The notes under the pieces were generated by a model. That model was not told where the DNA came from. It ran no database searches and was given only the letters and a program-made list of their open reading frames with translations. A program made the position numbers and the translations under genes. Below, piece by piece: positions 21,762 through 30,969 of a stretch of 64,000 bases of DNA (position 1 is its first letter; the number at the start of each line of letters is the position of its first letter). The DNA comes from Fidelibacterota bacterium. GTDB lineage: Bacteria; Fidelibacterota; Marinisomatia; SCGC-AAA003-L08; D37C17. The stretch is from positions 33,086 through 97,085 of the forward strand of contig PBFG01000019.1 of the NCBI GenBank assembly GCA_002718585.1, in the 5' to 3' direction.

Positions 21762-22421
21762 ATGAATAAACTTATTTCTCTATTTATAGTACTTACTTCA
21801 TTGGTCTTTTCACAAGATAGAAGTATTATTTTTAGTACTGGTACACCTGATTCAACATCTGGGTTTTTAATTGATAATACTAATTCTTATGCAAATAGAT
21901 TCTCCGTTAATGTAGATTTTGTTTTAGAGGCTATGAATTTTTTCATGACATCAGAAAACCAGGAAAATTCAAATATTCATATATCAATTAGGGAAGATTT
22001 AAACGGAATACCTGGTGAACTTGTATCTGAATTTTCTGAATGGAACTATACTATTGATTTTGATCATCCATTTAACTACAATCTTATTCAAACCACAAAT
22101 TTGTGCGTTTATCTAGATAGCGGAAATTACTATTGGTTTGTTATAGAGGCAGCTGACAATTTAACTGAAGTTTCATGGATATATTCAAATTCTCCTTTAT
22201 ATCAAATAGCATCAAGCCAAGATTCAGGTATTTCATGGCAAACTGATGTTTCTTATGCTGGTGCTGGTTCAATTTTTGGAGAACAAATATATGTTCAAGA
22301 ATCATCAGAGGGTGATTTGAATTCAGATTTTACAACAAATGTTGTAGATATTGTTTCACTTGTAAGCTACGTACTTGGAGAATCTTCATTTGATCAAGAA
22401 CAGTTAATAATAGCAGATTAA
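21762..22421 (+). CDS. Secreted protein of unknown function ending in a dockerin-type repeat; it terminates at a TAA inside the second dockerin repeat
   Basis: Signal peptide MNKLISLFIVLTSLVFSQ and dockerin repeat GDLNSDFTTNVVDIVSLVSYVLG. The frame continues past the TAA into 22422..23051. Confidence 0.55.
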   Translation: MNKLISLFIVLTSLVFSQDRSIIFSTGTPDSTSGFLIDNTNSYANRFSVNVDFVLEAMNFFMTSENQENSNIHISIREDLNGIPGELVSEFSEWNYTIDFDHPFNYNLIQTTNLCVYLDSGNYYWFVIEAADNLTEVSWIYSNSPLYQIASSQDSGISWQTDVSYAGAGSIFGEQIYVQESSEGDLNSDFTTNVVDIVSLVSYVLGESSFDQEQLIIAD

Positions 22422-22460
22422 AATAGAGACGGTCTTATTAATGTAGTTGATATTGTTGCA

Positions 22461-23051
22461 ATGGTTAGCATTGTTTTGAGTCCACCACTCCAAGTATCTG
22501 ACTTTAACCTGGAAGACATTAATCCTGCATCAAATTACTATAGTCAAGAAATTGGACCTTCATTTTTTTCAGGACAAGTATCAGCTTACTATTTTGGGAA
22601 ACAAGGCTGAACTACATGTAAAGCCCGGTTCGGGATTCTTAATGATTTATATAATGAGTTACTTGCAGAAGGTATAGATGATGTTAAGATAATGGGTATC
22701 AATGGCTTTCAGTACATTGAAGATAGTGTTGATTGTATGATATGTAATGATGAGTGTACCTCTAATACATGTTCATCGGGACCTAGAGTATTATCGTGGT
22801 CTCAAGATTATGATGATGGATTAAATTGTTTAGATGAAAATCAAGGTATATGCGAAGCATTAGATGGCGATGGTGACGTTTGGGAATTAATGGATGCTAC
22901 CTTAAGAGATTTTGTTATAGTTGATAGAAATGGAAATGAATTTGCAAGAGTTAACTTGACTTATAACAACCCTGATCCGACTGAAATTGGAGAATGTACT
23001 GGTAACTATCAAAAAATTAAAGATTTAATTCTTTCAGCCCGCAACAGATAA
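22461..23051 (+). CDS. Thioredoxin-fold protein with in-frame TGA (candidate Sec) in a UxxC motif; true start uncertain (first ATG after the TAA is used here)
   Basis: Same frame as 21762..22421. It reads ..VSAYYFGKQG-TGA-TTCKARFG.. and joins the tracked ORF 22692..23051. It is paralogous to 27683..28342 and 28458..29111. Confidence 0.5.
22621..22640 (+). promoter_or_regulatory. SECIS-like hairpin downstream of TGA 22608
   Basis: AAG-CCCG-GUU-CGGG-(AUU bulge)-CUU. The loop G lies 20 nt after the U of UGA. It is built from GC-rich codons (gcc cgg ttc ggg) in an AT-rich gene. Confidence 0.5.
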
Positions 23052-23131: not shown

Positions 23132-23776
23132 ATGATAGTAACTAAACCAGCACCTGAATTTAAGACACAGGCTGTTATGCCTGACAATTCAATACAAGAA
23201 GTAAAATTATCTGATTATAAAGGCAAAAAAGTTGTTCTTTTCTTTTATCCTTTAGATTTTACTTTTGTTTGCCCGACAGAATTATTAGCATTTGATAAAA
23301 GACTTTCTGAATTTGAATCTAGAGGCGTTCAAGTTTTAGGTTGTTCTGTTGATTCCAGATGGAGTCATCTTGCCTGGAAAAATACTGATGTAAACAAAGG
23401 TGGTATTGGTAATGTTCAGTATCCAATATTACAAGATTTAGATAAATCAATCGCTAGAAGTTTTGATGTTTTAGTTGGATCAACTCCTGCTACAGTGTAC
23501 ACTCAGGATACAGAAGTGGATACCACTGTTGGGGGTGGTGTTGCACTTAGAGCATCATTTTTAATTGATGAAGAAGGAATAGTTAGGCACGCAGTGATAA
23601 ATGACCTTCCACTTGGAAGAAATATTGATGAAATGGTTAGAATGGTAGATGCTTTAACTCATCATCAAAAACATGGTGAAGTTTGTCCAGCTGGTTGGAA
23701 AGATGGTGATAACGCCATGGAAGAGTCCCCAGATGGAGTTTCAAGTTACCTATCTGATAACGCAGATAATTTATAA
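23132..23776 (+). CDS. Typical 2-Cys peroxiredoxin (AhpC/Prx1 family)
   Basis: Peroxidatic motif FFYPLDFTFVCPTE and resolving motif GEVCPAGW. Strong RBS aaggag. Confidence 0.9.
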   Translation: MIVTKPAPEFKTQAVMPDNSIQEVKLSDYKGKKVVLFFYPLDFTFVCPTELLAFDKRLSEFESRGVQVLGCSVDSRWSHLAWKNTDVNKGGIGNVQYPILQDLDKSIARSFDVLVGSTPATVYTQDTEVDTTVGGGVALRASFLIDEEGIVRHAVINDLPLGRNIDEMVRMVDALTHHQKHGEVCPAGWKDGDNAMEESPDGVSSYLSDNADNL

Positions 23777-23785
23777 GGAGATTTA

Positions 23786-24217
23786 ATGAAAAAAGAAATA
23801 GTATATGCACATTGTGATGGACCTTGCGGAATTTACGATCCTGCAAGTGCTAGAATAGCAGCCGAAGCTGTGCTATCAATGACAAAAAAAATGTTAGAAC
23901 TAAAAGTTCCAGAAGATTCTGAAGCCATGGCTCATTATACAAATACAATGAGTCGATATGCTAGTATTAAAGAAGAAGAAGCTCAAAAATGTAAGGACGA
24001 AGTACTTATTCTTTGGACAGATTTTTTTAAACCTGAACATTTAAGTTCTCATCCAGATTTACATACTTTATTTTGGAATACAGCTAAATTATGTAGTTCT
24101 TGTAAGGTGGAGATTTCCATTGATCATGCAAATGAATTATTAGATCATGTTCATAAGATTCATGATTTATTTTGGTCCGTAAAAAATAGAAAAATTGATT
24201 GGTATACTGCTGGATAG
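23786..24217 (+). CDS. sodN: Nickel superoxide dismutase precursor
   Basis: Ni-hook HCDGPCGIYDP immediately after a short propeptide MKKEIVYA. About 140 aa, four-helix type. Confidence 0.92.
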   Translation: MKKEIVYAHCDGPCGIYDPASARIAAEAVLSMTKKMLELKVPEDSEAMAHYTNTMSRYASIKEEEAQKCKDEVLILWTDFFKPEHLSSHPDLHTLFWNTAKLCSSCKVEISIDHANELLDHVHKIHDLFWSVKNRKIDWYTAG

Positions 24218-24225
24218 ATTAAACA

Positions 24226-24543
24226 ATGGTTGAATTTTTACATTTCTTTGTAAAGGGTAATAGTATGCTACCTGCCCTGAAAGATGGTGATTCGATAAAA
24301 ATGATGAAATTTGATAATAATATTAATATTAATGTTAATGATATTGTCGTTTTTGAACACCCTTTCAAAAAAAAATGTAAATTAATCAAAAGAATAAAAA
24401 AAATAACCAAAGATAATAAAATTTTCGTTCAGGGTGATAATACCAATTACGAATCTAGTAATGACAGCCATAACTTTGGTTACATTAAAAAGAAAAGTTT
24501 AATTGCAATAAGAAAGGAAATAAATGAAATTACTTGCTCCTAA
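24226..24543 (+). CDS. sodX: NiSOD maturation endopeptidase (S26 signal-peptidase-like)
   Basis: VKGNSMLPALKDGD serine protease motif and GDN..S.DS tail. Located directly downstream of sodN. Confidence 0.8.
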   Translation: MVEFLHFFVKGNSMLPALKDGDSIKMMKFDNNININVNDIVVFEHPFKKKCKLIKRIKKITKDNKIFVQGDNTNYESSNDSHNFGYIKKKSLIAIRKEINEITCS

Positions 24544-24900: not shown

Positions 24901-24981
24901 GGAGAGGTGGACAACGGCTGTCGAGCGGTCTTGAAAACCGTCGCCCCTATGGGGTTGCAGGTTCGAATCCTGTCCTCTCCG
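24901..24981 (+). tRNA. tRNA-Ser (anticodon UGA)
   Basis: GGAGAGG acceptor paired with CCUCUCC, anticodon loop CUUGAAA, long variable arm (GCCCCUAUGGGGU) and T-loop GGTTCGAATCC. Confidence 0.88.
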
Positions 24982-24993
24982 CAATAATTCAAT

Positions 24994-25079
24994 GGAGAGT
25001 TGGCAGAGCGGTAATGCAGCGGATTGCTAATCCGTCGTGATGTAACAATCACGCGCGAGTTCAAATCTCGCACTCTCCG
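24994..25079 (+). tRNA. tRNA-Ser (anticodon GCU)
   Basis: GGAGAGU acceptor paired with ACUCUCC, anticodon loop UUGCUAA, long variable arm (GUGAUGUAACAAUCAC) and T-loop AGTTCAAATCT. Confidence 0.88.
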
Positions 25080-25095
25080 CTCGGAGCATATAGAA

Positions 25096-27682: not shown

Positions 27683-28342
27683 ATGAAAAGATATATTTTG
27701 ATATTATTATTTTCAAATCTACTTGCAAATGTATTTGAATATTCACTTTTGGATTACAATACGACATCCCCTACCCATCAACTAGATGTTTGGTACCCGG
27801 AATATTCTAATCACATTACAATGCATTATTTTGCAACTCAAGGATGAGCGGGCTGAACCGCAACATTTGGACAGTTGTCCAACTTTCAAGAAGAATTAAA
27901 AAACGATTATGGCTTCGAAAATGTTGTAATCATAGCAATTGGCCAAACTAATATTAGTAGTTTTAATAATAGTTTTTGCGCAAATTCTGATTTACCTCTA
28001 GTCATGGATGAATTTCCTGAGCTTCCAATTAGAGAACAATTTTCGCCTTATGGCGAATCACATGATTTTATAATTGTCGATTATGATGGTAATTATTTAG
28101 ATCACATTAACTTTTTAAGTTTAGGAAATATTGAAAAAAATTATATAATCGACGTACTAGAAGATAATTACAACCAAATAGTTTTGGGTGATGTTAATGG
28201 TGATACATTCGTTAATATTCAAGATGTCATTTTACTCGTTAATATGATACTTAGTAATTCATCTGATAATGTAGATGTAAATGGAGATGGCTCTACTAAT
28301 ATTTTGGATGTTATACAGATAGTTAATATTATTTTAAATTGA
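27683..28342 (+). CDS. Secreted thioredoxin-fold protein with two in-frame TGA codons (candidate UxxU redox motif) and a C-terminal dockerin pair
   Basis: The ATG at 27683 gives MKRYILILLFSNLLANV.. and ITMHYFATQG-TGA-AG-TGA-TATFGQL, in frame with tracked ORF 27875..28342. Dockerin repeats GDVNGDTFVNIQDVILLVNMIL and VDVNGDGSTNILDVIQIVNIIL. Confidence 0.55.
27867..27882 (+). promoter_or_regulatory. SECIS-like hairpin downstream of TGAs 27845 and 27854
   Basis: UUGGAC-AGUU-GUCCAA, a 6 bp stem. The loop G lies 20 nt after the second UGA and 29 nt after the first. Confidence 0.4.
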
Positions 28343-28457: not shown

Positions 28458-29111
28458 ATGAGAGTTTTTTTAATGTTATTAATAACATCTTTTAGTTTTA
28501 GTCAATACGCTTACAGTCTAACTGATAATAATAGTTCATCTGATTATTACCTAGAAAATGTCGGTCCAGAATATTTTGAAAATCAAATAACCATGCATTA
28601 TTTTGGAAGCTTTACATGAGGTCTGTGTAATTCGCGGTTCGCGCAATTAAACACCTTATATGAGTCCTTACTTGATAGTGGATATGACCAAGTTAAACTT
28701 ATTGGAATAGGCTACAGTTATCAATCTAATTCTTACAGTAATTGGTCAAATTCAAATGAATTCTCATCAGTTTGTTATGATGATAGCAACAATCCTACTT
28801 TTAATAGCTGGGGAGCGAGTCAAAGAGATTTTTATGTTTTAGACCACGAAAAGAATCTTGTCCTGGAACAAAATATTTCTGGAGGATTACCTGATAATCT
28901 TGAATCCCTAATCATTAACCTAATAAGCGATATACCAAACGAAATAATTAATGGTGATTTTAACCAAGATGGAGTATTAAATGTAGTAGATGTTGTTTCA
29001 ATTATTAATTTAGTTTTAACTAATCAATATAATGAGATTGCTGATGTTAATAGTGATAATTTATTAAATGTAGTAGATATTGTAATGCTAGTTAATCTAA
29101 TAATATCCTAA
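28458..29111 (+). CDS. Secreted thioredoxin-fold protein with in-frame TGA (candidate Sec, UxxC) and a C-terminal dockerin pair
   Basis: MRVFLMLLITSFSFSQ signal peptide and ITMHYFGSFT-TGA-GLCNSRFAQL. The frame stays open to the TAA at 29109. Dockerin repeats GDFNQDGVLNVVDVVSIINLVL and ADVNSDNLLNVVDIVMLVNLII. The ORF track reports only the part before the TGA. Confidence 0.6.
28629..28648 (+). promoter_or_regulatory. SECIS-like hairpin downstream of TGA 28617
   Basis: AAUU-CGCG-GUU-CGCG-(C bulge)-AAUU. The loop G lies 20 nt after the U of UGA, with the same CGGUUCG core as the hairpin at 22621. Confidence 0.5.
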
Positions 29112-29116
29112 TATTT

Positions 29117-29773
29117 TTATTGATTGTTTAGATCACTGAAATCAATTGTTATATACAATCTTCTGTATTTCTCATCATAATATGGAGATCGATGTACGAG
29201 TCCCTGACCTTTGTTTCCTGACCATAGTTCACCCTTTAACAAAGCAACATCACCTATAGCTAAATGCTTAATATCTGTTTTACTCGAAAATAAGCCATCT
29301 TGGTCTTTACTAAATTTTTGATTAAATTTTAGTTTTCTCCTATCAATTAAATCATTTGGCAGCCATTCTGTACCTGGTCCATAATATGTTGTCAGCAATC
29401 TACATTTTAAATAATCAACATGAAATCTAGGACATGTTGCATTTGTTGAAATACCCATTCTTAACCAAACTTTCTTCAGTTCAAACATATTACAAAATAA
29501 TTCGGATAAATTAGATATATCATTAAATAAAAATATTTTATTTTGAGATTGACCTAATCTATTAACTAGAGCTTCATTTATTTCGTTATACTTGAGAACT
29601 TTTGAAAAGTCAAATTCTAAATTATCATTAATTATTTCTTCTGCACCAAAAGATATTGATTCATCCAATTTCCTTTTCCATAATGAAATATTATTTTTGT
29701 TATCAAAAATTTCTGATAGAACTATGGATTTTCTGTTAAAAATATTTTTTCTTAAAATTGTTTTATTAATCAC
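29117..29773 (-). CDS. Conserved hypothetical protein, DUF1826-like (frequent partner of COG0523 GTPases)
   Basis: Overlaps the upstream COG0523 gene by 4 nt. The family assignment is from memory of the pairing and of CPRFHVD..HRSP-type motifs, and is tentative. Confidence 0.5.
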
Positions 29774-30969
29774 GAAATTTCATTCCATTCAGGAAATGGA
29801 TCATTAAATGTTTCCCAATGTTTTCTACCCATTAATAAGTCATCCGTAGATAATAAACAATCATCAAGGAGTTTAATAATTTTATTTTTTTCTAAACCTT
29901 GACCGATAAAAACTAATTCTTGACGCATGTCACCAAATGGTTCTACCCATTTTTCATCTATAAAATCTAATGTTTCTTGGTCTTCAGGCCAACGTTCTTT
30001 TGGTATCGCTTTCCAAAACATTCCAGCAAAACCATGGTGAGCTATTCCCCCCGCTTGATTCCAACTTCCCGCAAACATGGGCCGTGATGCGAGCCAAAAA
30101 AAACCTTTTGATCTAATTAATTTTCCAGCAATATCTTTACTGTGTAAAAAATTATGAAATTTTTCAGGATAAAAGGGTCTTCGAGCTTCGTAAACAAAAC
30201 TACTTATGCCATACTCTTCTGTTTCTGGTATATGTTCTCCATTCATTTCCTGCATCCATCCGGGTGCTTTTTGAGCTTTTTCAAAATCAAATAATCCAGT
30301 GTTTAAAATCTTATCAATTTTAATTCCTCCGTTTGAAATTGGAATGATTTCAGCATTTGTATTTAAAGTTTTTAAAATAGAAACTAATTTATTTATTTTT
30401 TTCTGATTCACTAAATCAATTTTACTAATTAGAATTATATCAGCAAATTCAACCTGATCGACTAATAGGTCCGCTACACTTCTATGATCATCTTCTCCCA
30501 GTGACTCACCAACTTCTTGAAGATATTTTGCTTCATCATAATCCTTCAAAAAATTTACTGCATCTACAACAGTTACCATTGTATCTAATTTAGATACATC
30601 TGAAAGCGATGTACCATTTTCATCTTCAAATATAAATGTTTCTGCAACTGGTAAAGGTTCAGATATACCCGTTGATTCAATTAATAAATAATCAAATTTA
30701 TTAGATTTAGCTAATTTGGAAACTTCGACTAATAAATCCTCTCTCAAGGTACAACATATACAACCATTACTCATTTCTACTAATTTTTCTTCTTTGTAAT
30801 CAAGTGAAACATCTTTTTGAATCATACTTTGATCTATATTAATTTCACTCATATCATTCACTATAACAGCAACTTTCTTTCCTTCTCGATTATTTAATAC
30901 ATTGGTTAATACTGTTGTTTTTCCTGCTCCTAAAAATCCTGATAGAACAGTTACAGGTAATCTCTCCAT
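29770..30969 (-). CDS. COG0523-family G3E GTPase (CobW/ZigA/YjiA-like zinc metallochaperone)
   Basis: P-loop GFLGAGKTT, metal-binding [10 protein letters not shown] (CxCC), ESTGISEP and a CobW_C-like tail. Confidence 0.88.

Follow-up and report, generated by a model that had tools for sequence, protein, structure and literature searches.

A UGA codon probably recoded as selenocysteine in a dockerin-carrying thioredoxin-fold redoxin gene of a Marinimicrobia (SAR406) bacterium

Reading frame and protein architecture

The window, that is, the whole stretch of 64,000 nucleotides that was analysed, contains a reading frame that begins with an ATG at 21762 and continues to a TAA at 23049-23051, and the only interruptions in it are a TAA at 22419-22421 and a TGA at 22608-22610. 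The domains of the encoded protein follow one another in the order signal peptide, N-terminal domain, dockerin and thioredoxin-fold domain (Table 1). The earlier note, which was made from the letters of the DNA by themselves, had described this frame with its one TAA and one TGA, had read the peptide around the TGA as VSAYYFGKQG-[TGA]-TTCKARFG, and had taken the open reading frame 22692..23051 for a mere tail of the longer frame. Coordinates and sequence bear out all three statements, and there is no in-frame ATG, GTG or TTG between 22611 and the ATG at 22692.

Table 1. Features of the redoxin locus and of two paralogous genes in the window (+, forward strand)
Feature	Position	Strand	Details or basis
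Predicted selenoprotein gene, full reading frame	21762..23051	+	429 codons plus stop
Predicted Sec-type signal peptide, MNKLISLFIVLTSLVFSQ	21762..21815	+	Read from sequence
Dockerin type I, two Ca-binding repeats	22311..22460	+	PF00404, residues 184-233
Private TAA nonsense codon in dockerin repeat 2 (Leu TTA in all relatives)	22419..22421	+	Contig comparison
TUGYCR-type / 'Prx-like 2' thioredoxin-fold redoxin domain	22494..23036	+	NF053656, residues 245-425
Redox motif U-T-T-C (TGA ACT ACA TGT) with predicted Sec codon TGA 22608-22610	22608..22619	+	Conservation; GOS ortholog with U
Possible hairpin extension, columns 14-16 with 28-30	22621..22637	+	Mismatched (G·A) here; fully paired in many relatives
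Core SECIS-like hairpin CCCG-GUU-CGGG, 4 bp and GUU triloop	22624..22634	+	Covariation, conservation
Paralog gene with UxxU, predicted U codons 27845/27854	27683-28342
Paralog gene with T-U-G-L-C-N at 28617	28458-29111

The architecture upstream of the TGA is shared by related loci. Among the complete loci, most (25 of 31) have 277-321 open codons upstream of the TGA, usually with a signal peptide at the start, and most orthologs keep a hydrophobic N-terminal leader followed by QDRS. The dockerin belongs to Pfam family PF00404 (E = 1.8e-6; 28.5 bits, above the cut-off of 22.9), and its two repeats read GDLNSDFTTNVVD and AD[*/L]NRDGLINVVD. Besides the dockerin, Pfam returns weak matches of the window protein to Thioredoxin_8 and SelP_N.

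The in-frame TAA is located 63 codons upstream of the TGA and cuts the domain with the predicted selenocysteine (Sec) off from the signal peptide; as the DNA is assembled, this domain would consequently not be made as part of a secreted protein. Six contigs from independent assemblies (L114-L119), about 99.6% identical to the window over the locus as measured for L114, were compared with the window, five of them across the full 1290 nt of the frame and the sixth in part. TTA at 22419-22421 and TGA at 22608 are present in all six. The base at 22420, A in the window, is T in these contigs and in the 92%-identical locus L010, and TTA is also found in all more distant orthologs. The TAA is thus private to this assembly, and the window copy is either a very recent pseudogene (a nonsense allele) or carries a base error. 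In the first case the TAA would be a real nonsense mutation, and the TGA and the hairpin behind it would be intact without being expressed as a secreted selenoprotein; in the second, the gene would be functional and the fault would lie in sequencing or assembly. The A at 22420, set against the T of six near-identical contigs and of every distant ortholog, is what a fresh pseudogene would present, and the 219-aa truncated product is absent from public assembly records. Nine public contigs encode a tail of 119 aa identical to that of the window. However, the five full-length contigs differ from the window frame at 3-9 positions, none of them otherwise disruptive, so there is no sign of decay beyond the one base, and the same picture would arise from an error in a single base or from a minority variant. 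The pseudogene is given somewhat less than an even chance.

Conservation of the TGA column and of the downstream hairpin

The TGA occupies the aligned column in all 32 sequences of this gene (locus 1), namely the window and the 31 related loci, which come from metagenome assemblies, metagenome-assembled genomes of Marinimicrobia ('Neomarinimicrobiota', SAR406) and one single-cell genome. The context YYFGK[QAG]G-U-xxC-[RK]xRFG is conserved in these loci on both sides of the TGA. A paralogous sister subfamily has a TGA at the same column in about 78 of 78 loci; these were collected in a metagenome scan with the subfamily alignment, which gave 80 further loci, and the TGA is present in all true family hits.

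Protein records display the same column indirectly. A protein search with the domain in which U had been replaced by C found 172 relatives, nearly all of them 'tails' of 104-145 aa; the longest tail ORFs begin three codons past the TGA column ('MCRARFG…') and the shorter ones further downstream. The single match of this search that spans the column, P0001, is written with W there, but its DNA has TGA. In an exhaustive HMMER search of 1.84 billion representatives, upstream fragments stop exactly at the residue that precedes U, many tail ORFs have their start three residues beyond it, and the matches that span the column have either 'W' or a true Cys. The two 'W' cases that were checked (P0001 and P0232) both represent TGA under another translation table. 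In public protein databases these genes are thus divided in two or entered with W in place of Sec. The true Cys homologs are P0124, with TGC in C-G-T-C, and P0169, with C-G-I-C, and they indicate that Sec/Cys pairs exist in the family. The earlier note had asked whether homologues would align a Cys or Sec at this column, and the answer is TGA in the 31 locus-1 and about 78 subfamily loci and Cys in P0124 and P0169.

Codon differences provide evidence of a different kind. The window differs from L010 by 69 synonymous and 31 non-synonymous codons over the frame. The ratio of synonymous to non-synonymous differences is 11 : 3 in the stretch from the TAA to the TGA and 3 : 0 in the stretch from the TGA to the next ATG. 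This synonymous excess implies that coding constraint acts on one and the same frame before and after the TGA.

Gene callers annotate the locus as two genes, and the TGA could accordingly be an ordinary stop behind a 282-aa dockerin protein, with a separate tail protein starting just downstream. Many orthologs would even permit this, as their motif is U-x-M-C and offers an ATG one codon after the TGA, directly before the Cys. The window and several orthologs, however, have U-T-T-C or U-S-T-C, and the window lacks any start until 22692, yet the intervening stretch is conserved with synonymous changes only. Separate proteins would also split the thioredoxin fold between strand beta-1 and helix alpha-1 and would leave the tail without its catalytic first Cys, while the Cys-form homologs are single polypeptides with CxxC. 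The covariation in the hairpin described below would have no explanation either. Two proteins at this locus are very improbable.

The hairpin begins with the CCCG stem at 22624, 13 nt after the TGA; from the U of the UGA to the loop G at 22628 the distance is 20 nt. Both distances agree with those given in the earlier note. Bacterial SECIS elements of the E. coli fdhF type are likewise hairpins in the coding sequence that follow the UGA closely and whose apical loop begins with G-U. In the fdhF SECIS the loop bases are G23 and U24, compared with the loop G at +20 in the window.

The earlier note had also pointed out that the hairpin is built from GC-rich codons in an AT-rich gene, and the usage figures agree. 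In the window, whose G+C content is about 28%, no synonymous codons are rarer than those of the hairpin: CGG accounts for 0.4% of the Arg codons, TTC for 12.7% of the Phe codons, GCC for 4.6% of the Ala codons and GGG for 5.2% of the Gly codons. The segment C-CGG-TTC-G is invariant in a set of 25 distinct sequences made up of locus-1 orthologs and locus-3 paralogs. Over 89 sequences it is invariant or nearly so, with two columns that differ in 1 of 89, and the loop GUU (22628-22630) is the same in all 89. Only two copies of the 7-mer CGGTTCG exist in the 64-kb window, and both lie 18 nt downstream of the first base of a TGA that is in frame.

Outside the invariant segment the pairing is maintained by compensatory changes. 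The middle base of the preceding codon (GCC, AGC, CAC, AAC) and the third (wobble) base of the Gly codon (GGG, GGC, GGT) change together and form C-G, G-C and A-U pairs, and compensatory changes are present at column pairs 17-27 and 18-26. The sister subfamily has the same hairpin; there the pair adjoining the invariant core changes from C-G to U-A or G-C, with a change of the amino acid from Gly to Glu or Ala. For a 7-bp helix over the 89 sequences, 83.6% of the cells are paired as against 68.3% in shuffled sequences, and six of the seven pairs have changes on both sides. The covariation score is 0.354 compared with 0.112 in shuffles, a value that none of 500 shuffles reaches, and it does not exceed 0.155 when the partners are slid. 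The selection at the RNA level that the earlier note had suspected is supported by these compensatory changes. As for the hairpin as first drawn, the 4-bp core stands, being 97% paired in the orthologs. The outer AAG/CUU helix with its AUU bulge does not; it is poorly conserved and paired in 55% of ortholog cells, and has been rejected.

The homologs at the two extremes of composition and chemistry are informative as well. In the Sec form of an organism with 52% GC, a hairpin of different sequence, GAAGCCA-GUU-UGGCUUC, is found at the same position. The Cys form P0124 is without the hairpin.

The bacterial SECIS consensus (Zhang & Gladyshev 2005), in the summary given by PMC13188914, has an upper stem of 4-16 bp, a distance of 16-37 nt between UGA and loop, a minimum free energy limit of -7.5 kcal/mol and an apical loop starting with G[U]. 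The loop of the window hairpin has the consensus size and the G-U start, its stem of 4 bp (22624-27 with 22631-34) and its spacing of 17 nt (22611-22627) are within range, and to this extent the fit to the bacterial SECIS model that the earlier note had proposed is confirmed. The core is very short, however, and the energy of the window copy, -5.6 kcal/mol over 43 nt, falls short of the limit. This stability is no higher than that of shuffled sequence (z = 0.06), and orthologs and paralogs have hairpin energies of -10.6 to -14.7 kcal/mol. The window hairpin is weak by itself; its significance lies in the comparison with other sequences. A permissive Rfam scan of 22400-22800 returned no SECIS family. 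What the alignment documents is a compact and near-invariant G-GUU-C SECIS core in which pairing is kept even at the cost of the amino acid.

The constancy of C-CGG-TTC-G might alternatively reflect conservation of the peptide R-F-G, or a nucleic-acid signal other than a SECIS. The peptide is indeed strongly conserved, and a window hairpin that is no more stable than shuffled sequence is compatible with selection on the protein. Against this, the codons used are consistently the rarest synonymous ones, and base 2 of the preceding codon varies together with the wobble base of the Gly codon. Moreover, Gly gives way to Glu or Ala exactly where pairing is restored, and the Cys-form homolog manages without the hairpin. 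It is highly unlikely that the segment is something other than a SECIS.

Family membership and fold

The family is not new. A study of ocean metagenomes had already described it in 2008, and NCBI has a curated model for it. This model, NF053656 ('TUGYCR motif thioredoxin fold (seleno)protein'), matches the window protein with 111.5 bits against a cut-off of 100 (E = 3e-32), and residues 245-425 align to profile positions 1-145 of 146. The literal T-U-G-Y-C-R motif is absent; the window has G-U-T-T-C-K in its place, with the U and the C in register. In addition, the orthologous group of the window possesses an extra N-terminal domain, a dockerin in front of the redoxin domain and a Cys-rich insert.

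In the GOS study (Zhang & Gladyshev 2008, PMC2398784), 'Prx-like 2' was listed with a weak similarity to pfam04592 at e > 0.001 and a UxxC motif, and comprised 99 Sec sequences and 100 Cys homologs, including some UxxU members and fusion forms. The dataset of that study contains JCVI_READ_1189786 ('…dockerin…QVSVYYFGKQGUTTCRSRFGIINDLY…') and also 'HYFGSFTU.LCNSRFAQL', which is of the type of the window paralog at 28617. The window gene has this listed ortholog ('…YYFGKQGUTTCRSRFG…NLTYNNPDPTELGECSGNYEKIKNLILAARNR'), the UxxC motif and the weak pfam04592 similarity, and by its sequence it is a member of 'Prx-like 2'. The 2008 sequence was listed with U. The family, its Sec site, its faint likeness to selenoprotein P and the UxxU variant have thus already been published. 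At that time 'Prx-like 2' had 'no strong homolog in any sequenced prokaryotic genome' (PMC2398784). Beyond that description, the present analysis finds the family in genomes of Marinimicrobia/SAR406, where its gene has the conserved neighbourhood sppA–X–prx–sodN–sodX. A literature search for TUGYCR, or for Marinimicrobia, SAR406 or Marinisomatota together with selenoprotein, found no paper on the family in this phylum. A metagenomic selenoprotein family that was formerly an orphan is now tied to a lineage and to an oxidative-stress neighbourhood. Further additions to what was known are a quantitative measure of covariation in the SECIS, the TAA private to this assembly and the two paralogs that the window also contains.

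Comparison of the family profile with PDB sequences places the motif on WCPPC in a nucleoredoxin-like protein and on WCEPC in ResA; the U column coincides with the first Cys. In an AF2 model of the ortholog P0001, built with an alignment, beta-1 comprises residues 146-152, U is residue 156 and alpha-1 comprises residues 159-175, with pLDDT in the domain mostly about 70-88. Foldseek relates this model to proteins of the TlpA/ResA/DsbE/StoA/DsbF type with a probability of 1.0 and target-normalised TM scores of 0.55-0.62. The domain thus has a TlpA/ResA-like thioredoxin fold with the redox motif at the N-terminus of alpha-1, as judged on the P0001 model, and the earlier note was right to put the TGA at the first Cys of a thioredoxin-fold CxxC motif. 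The periplasmic thiol-disulfide oxidoreductases TlpA, ResA, DsbE and StoA have the same fold and the same position of the redox motif and are also exported. They carry Cys in WCxxC, however, show a sequence identity of only 11-21% (11-15% for the hits of the TlpA/ResA type), and lack the dockerin and the different N-terminal domain of the window protein.

A relation to the N-domain of animal selenoprotein P (PF04592, SelP_N) has also been considered. Like the family, this domain carries UxxC, and its Sec occupies the homologous column. With PF04592 the window domain reaches 16 bits (E = 0.0085), below the gathering threshold of 23.2. Eight of 19 family members match SelP_N; the best is P0169 with 30.9 bits against the threshold of 23.2, and L028 has 21.9. 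In hhalign the family profile aligns with the N-domain of human SELENOP at 95.5% (E = 1.3e-8) with the U column on U59. The values for ResA and the nucleoredoxin-like protein are 92-93%, so that a special relation to SelP is only weakly favoured. The window protein, unlike selenoprotein P, has no Sec-rich C-terminal tail, and its gene has a bacterial hairpin within the ORF as opposed to the 3'-UTR SECIS of selenoprotein P. That the 'Prx-like 2'/TUGYCR redoxins of Marinimicrobia are true homologs of the SelP N-domain, closer to it than TlpA and ResA are and with Sec at the homologous UxxC position, is a doubtful proposition with perhaps a minor chance of being right. If it were true, the redox module of SelP would go back to a secreted selenoprotein that predates animals, or would owe its distribution to an exchange between marine bacteria and early metazoans, and this lineage with its UxxU paralog would offer a tractable bacterial model for extracellular selenium redox chemistry of the SelP type.

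Selenocysteine decoding, gene neighbourhood and paralogs

TGA terminates 10 of the 50 long ORFs in the window. In aceE, pheT, pheS, zigA and cyoE, the curated family profiles align through to their final positions immediately ahead of the TGA, indicating that TGA is a genuine stop in this genome and excluding genetic codes 4 and 25, which have been rejected for the window. The earlier note had named aceE and lpdA as examples of genuine TGA stops. The former is well founded; the lpdA-like gene is less decisive, since its match ends 10 residues before the TGA, 6 positions short of the profile end.

Reading of the UGA as a standard amino acid, whether by reassignment to Trp or Gly (codes 4 or 25) or by near-cognate Trp or Cys with the hairpin merely stimulating readthrough, is barely credible: many family members in the databases do have W at the column, but both that were checked are TGA under another table, TGA ends five genes of the window at their profile ends, the position is that of the nucleophilic Cys of CxxC where true homologs carry Cys, and the same lineage alternates TGA and Cys codons at a peroxiredoxin active site.

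This last point concerns the neighbouring gene. The closest relatives have sppA (S49 peptidase) first, followed by the redoxin gene, a 2-Cys peroxiredoxin gene, a Ni-superoxide dismutase gene and a gene for an S26-like maturation protease. The sppA–redoxin–prx core is common to more distant loci too, with other genes after prx. The codon for the peroxidatic Cys of the peroxiredoxin is TGA in 13 related loci and TGT or TGC in others, among them the window with TGC at 23270. Such alternation is independent, if indirect, evidence that the lineage decodes Sec. The redoxin probably belongs to an oxidative-stress module together with the adjacent peroxiredoxin, the Ni-superoxide dismutase and the maturation protease.

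The machinery for decoding was sought in the same DNA. A tRNA scan, Rfam and a motif search found no selA, selB, selD or tRNA-Sec in the 64-kb window or in the fetched loci. ARAGORN returned no tRNA-Sec in the window and 21 loci, and Rfam at gathering threshold listed for the window three ordinary tRNAs and chance hits, with no SECIS or tRNA-Sec family. Motifs for SelD (G-C/U-G-C-K), the PLP site of SelA and G1 of SelB, a crude test in six frames, gave nothing credible. A tRNA-Ser(UGA) at 24901-24982, unusual at first sight, has the anticodon loop CUUGAAA and is a normal tRNA for Ser. Peng et al. (2016) classed three SAR406 single-cell genomes as 'orphan SelD'. The orphan class is a point against Sec decoding, and the SelD in these genomes is indirect support for it; the present loci suggest that SAR406 genomes once listed in this way do encode selenoproteins.

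Taken together, the evidence argues for recoding of the UGA to Sec in this family, with a probability of about 0.9 as judged from sequence comparison, and those tests proposed against the Sec reading that could be run all favoured it. Under this reading the frame 21762..23051 of this Marinimicrobia (SAR406) bacterium would encode a secreted oxidoreductase with a thioredoxin fold and a dockerin. By analogy with the established bacterial Sec pathway, when the UGA at 22608 stands in the ribosomal A site, the hairpin 13 nt downstream would be bound by SelB·GTP·Sec-tRNASec, and this complex would deliver Sec instead of termination by release factor 2. In the product, U-x-x-C would form the redox centre where helix alpha-1 begins, and the mature protein would cycle between the selenol/thiol and the selenenylsulfide states outside the cytoplasm.

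For annotation, 21762-23051, 27683-28342 and 28458-29111 should each be joined across their TGAs, and the premature TAA in the first should be flagged. The latter two genes are paralogs in the same window, one with UxxC and one with UxxU, and they score 72 and 81 bits with NF053656, whose cut-off is 100. The UxxU at 27845/27854 is a possible diselenide centre.

Redoxin paralogs of locus 1 and its private stop codon

The window carries two redoxin paralogs of locus 1 (the dockerin-carrying redoxin gene with a predicted selenocysteine, Sec, codon), each with a dockerin at its C-terminus. The redox motif of the first reads HYFATQG-U-AG-U-TATFGQL, a UxxU form in which both U (Sec) positions are in-frame TGA codons, and the protein scores 72 bits with the NCBIfam model NF053656 (curated cut-off 100 bits). 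Its hairpin, UUGGAC-AGUU-GUCCAA, places the loop G 20 nt past the second UGA and has a folding energy of -14.7 kcal/mol (z = -2.6 relative to shuffled sequence). The UxxU arrangement is kept in two related loci, L035 (position 51) and the divergent L064 (position 334), and UxxU members of the 'Prx-like 2' family were already recorded in the 2008 GOS paper (PMC2398784). In the second paralog the motif is HYFGSFT-U-GLC-NSRFAQL, and the TGA at its U position is found at this column in all of ~78 metagenomic relatives. In the hairpin, CGCG-GUU-CGCG (-12.6 kcal/mol, z = -2.6), a C-G pair of the locus 1 stem is replaced by G-C, a compensatory change.

Locus 1 itself contains a TAA at 22419-22421 (A22420), within dockerin repeat 2, which is private to this assembly; the codon is TTA (Leu) in all six contigs that are ~99.6% identical over the locus and in all orthologs. 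The ZigA-type GTPase gene reaches 58 bits with the CobW-related selenoprotein model, a weak, sub-threshold match (cut-off 180), and no in-frame TGA was seen in it.

Features in the window around locus 1
Feature	Position	Strand	Details
2-Cys peroxiredoxin, adjoining locus 1	23132-23776		Cys codon TGC at 23270
Ni-superoxide dismutase	23786-24217		PF09055, E = 4e-45
S26/S24-like maturation protease of Ni-superoxide dismutase	24226-24543
tRNA-Ser(UGA)	24901-24982		tandem pair with next
tRNA-Ser(GCU)	24994-25080
UxxU redoxin paralog	27683-28342	+	TGAs 27845-27847 and 27854-27856; hairpin 27867-27882
Second redoxin paralog	28458-29111	+	TGA 28617-28619; hairpin core 28633-28643
ZigA-type zinc metallochaperone GTPase	29770-30969	-	674 bits

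Peroxiredoxin and the oxidative-stress cluster

The peroxidatic position of the neighbouring peroxiredoxin is Cys in the window and TGA in 13 related loci (L001, L004-L009, L014, L015, L017, L018, L023 and L024). In these loci gene callers break the gene up into a pair of short ORFs, of 46 aa and 100 aa in the calls that were inspected. The codons downstream of the TGA are G+C-richer in these forms, and this stretch may be a SECIS element. The peroxiredoxin, together with the Ni-superoxide dismutase and its maturation protease directly downstream (23786-24543), forms an oxidative-stress cluster, which is common to the closest relatives, and the tandem tRNA-Ser pair is kept 3' of it in most relatives. 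The tRNA-Ser(UGA) has a low Rfam score (40.7 bits); that it is a tRNA-Sec is ruled out because its anticodon loop is that of a normal tRNA-Ser.

Representation of the family in databases

Many public family entries (e.g. P0001, the ortholog, and the related proteins P0140, P0171, P0193 and P0232) have W at the Sec position, and in both entries checked at the DNA level (P0001 and P0232) the W codon is a TGA read under another genetic code. Most other public entries are split, with the upstream fragment and the tail as separate records. Another related protein, P0165 (612 aa), comes from an organism with G+C-rich DNA and repeats the redoxin domain in tandem at least four times, with Asp or Gln at the first redox position of the repeats (…WYFGRATDTACRAQF…); it is apparently a degenerate relative with several domains and no Sec.
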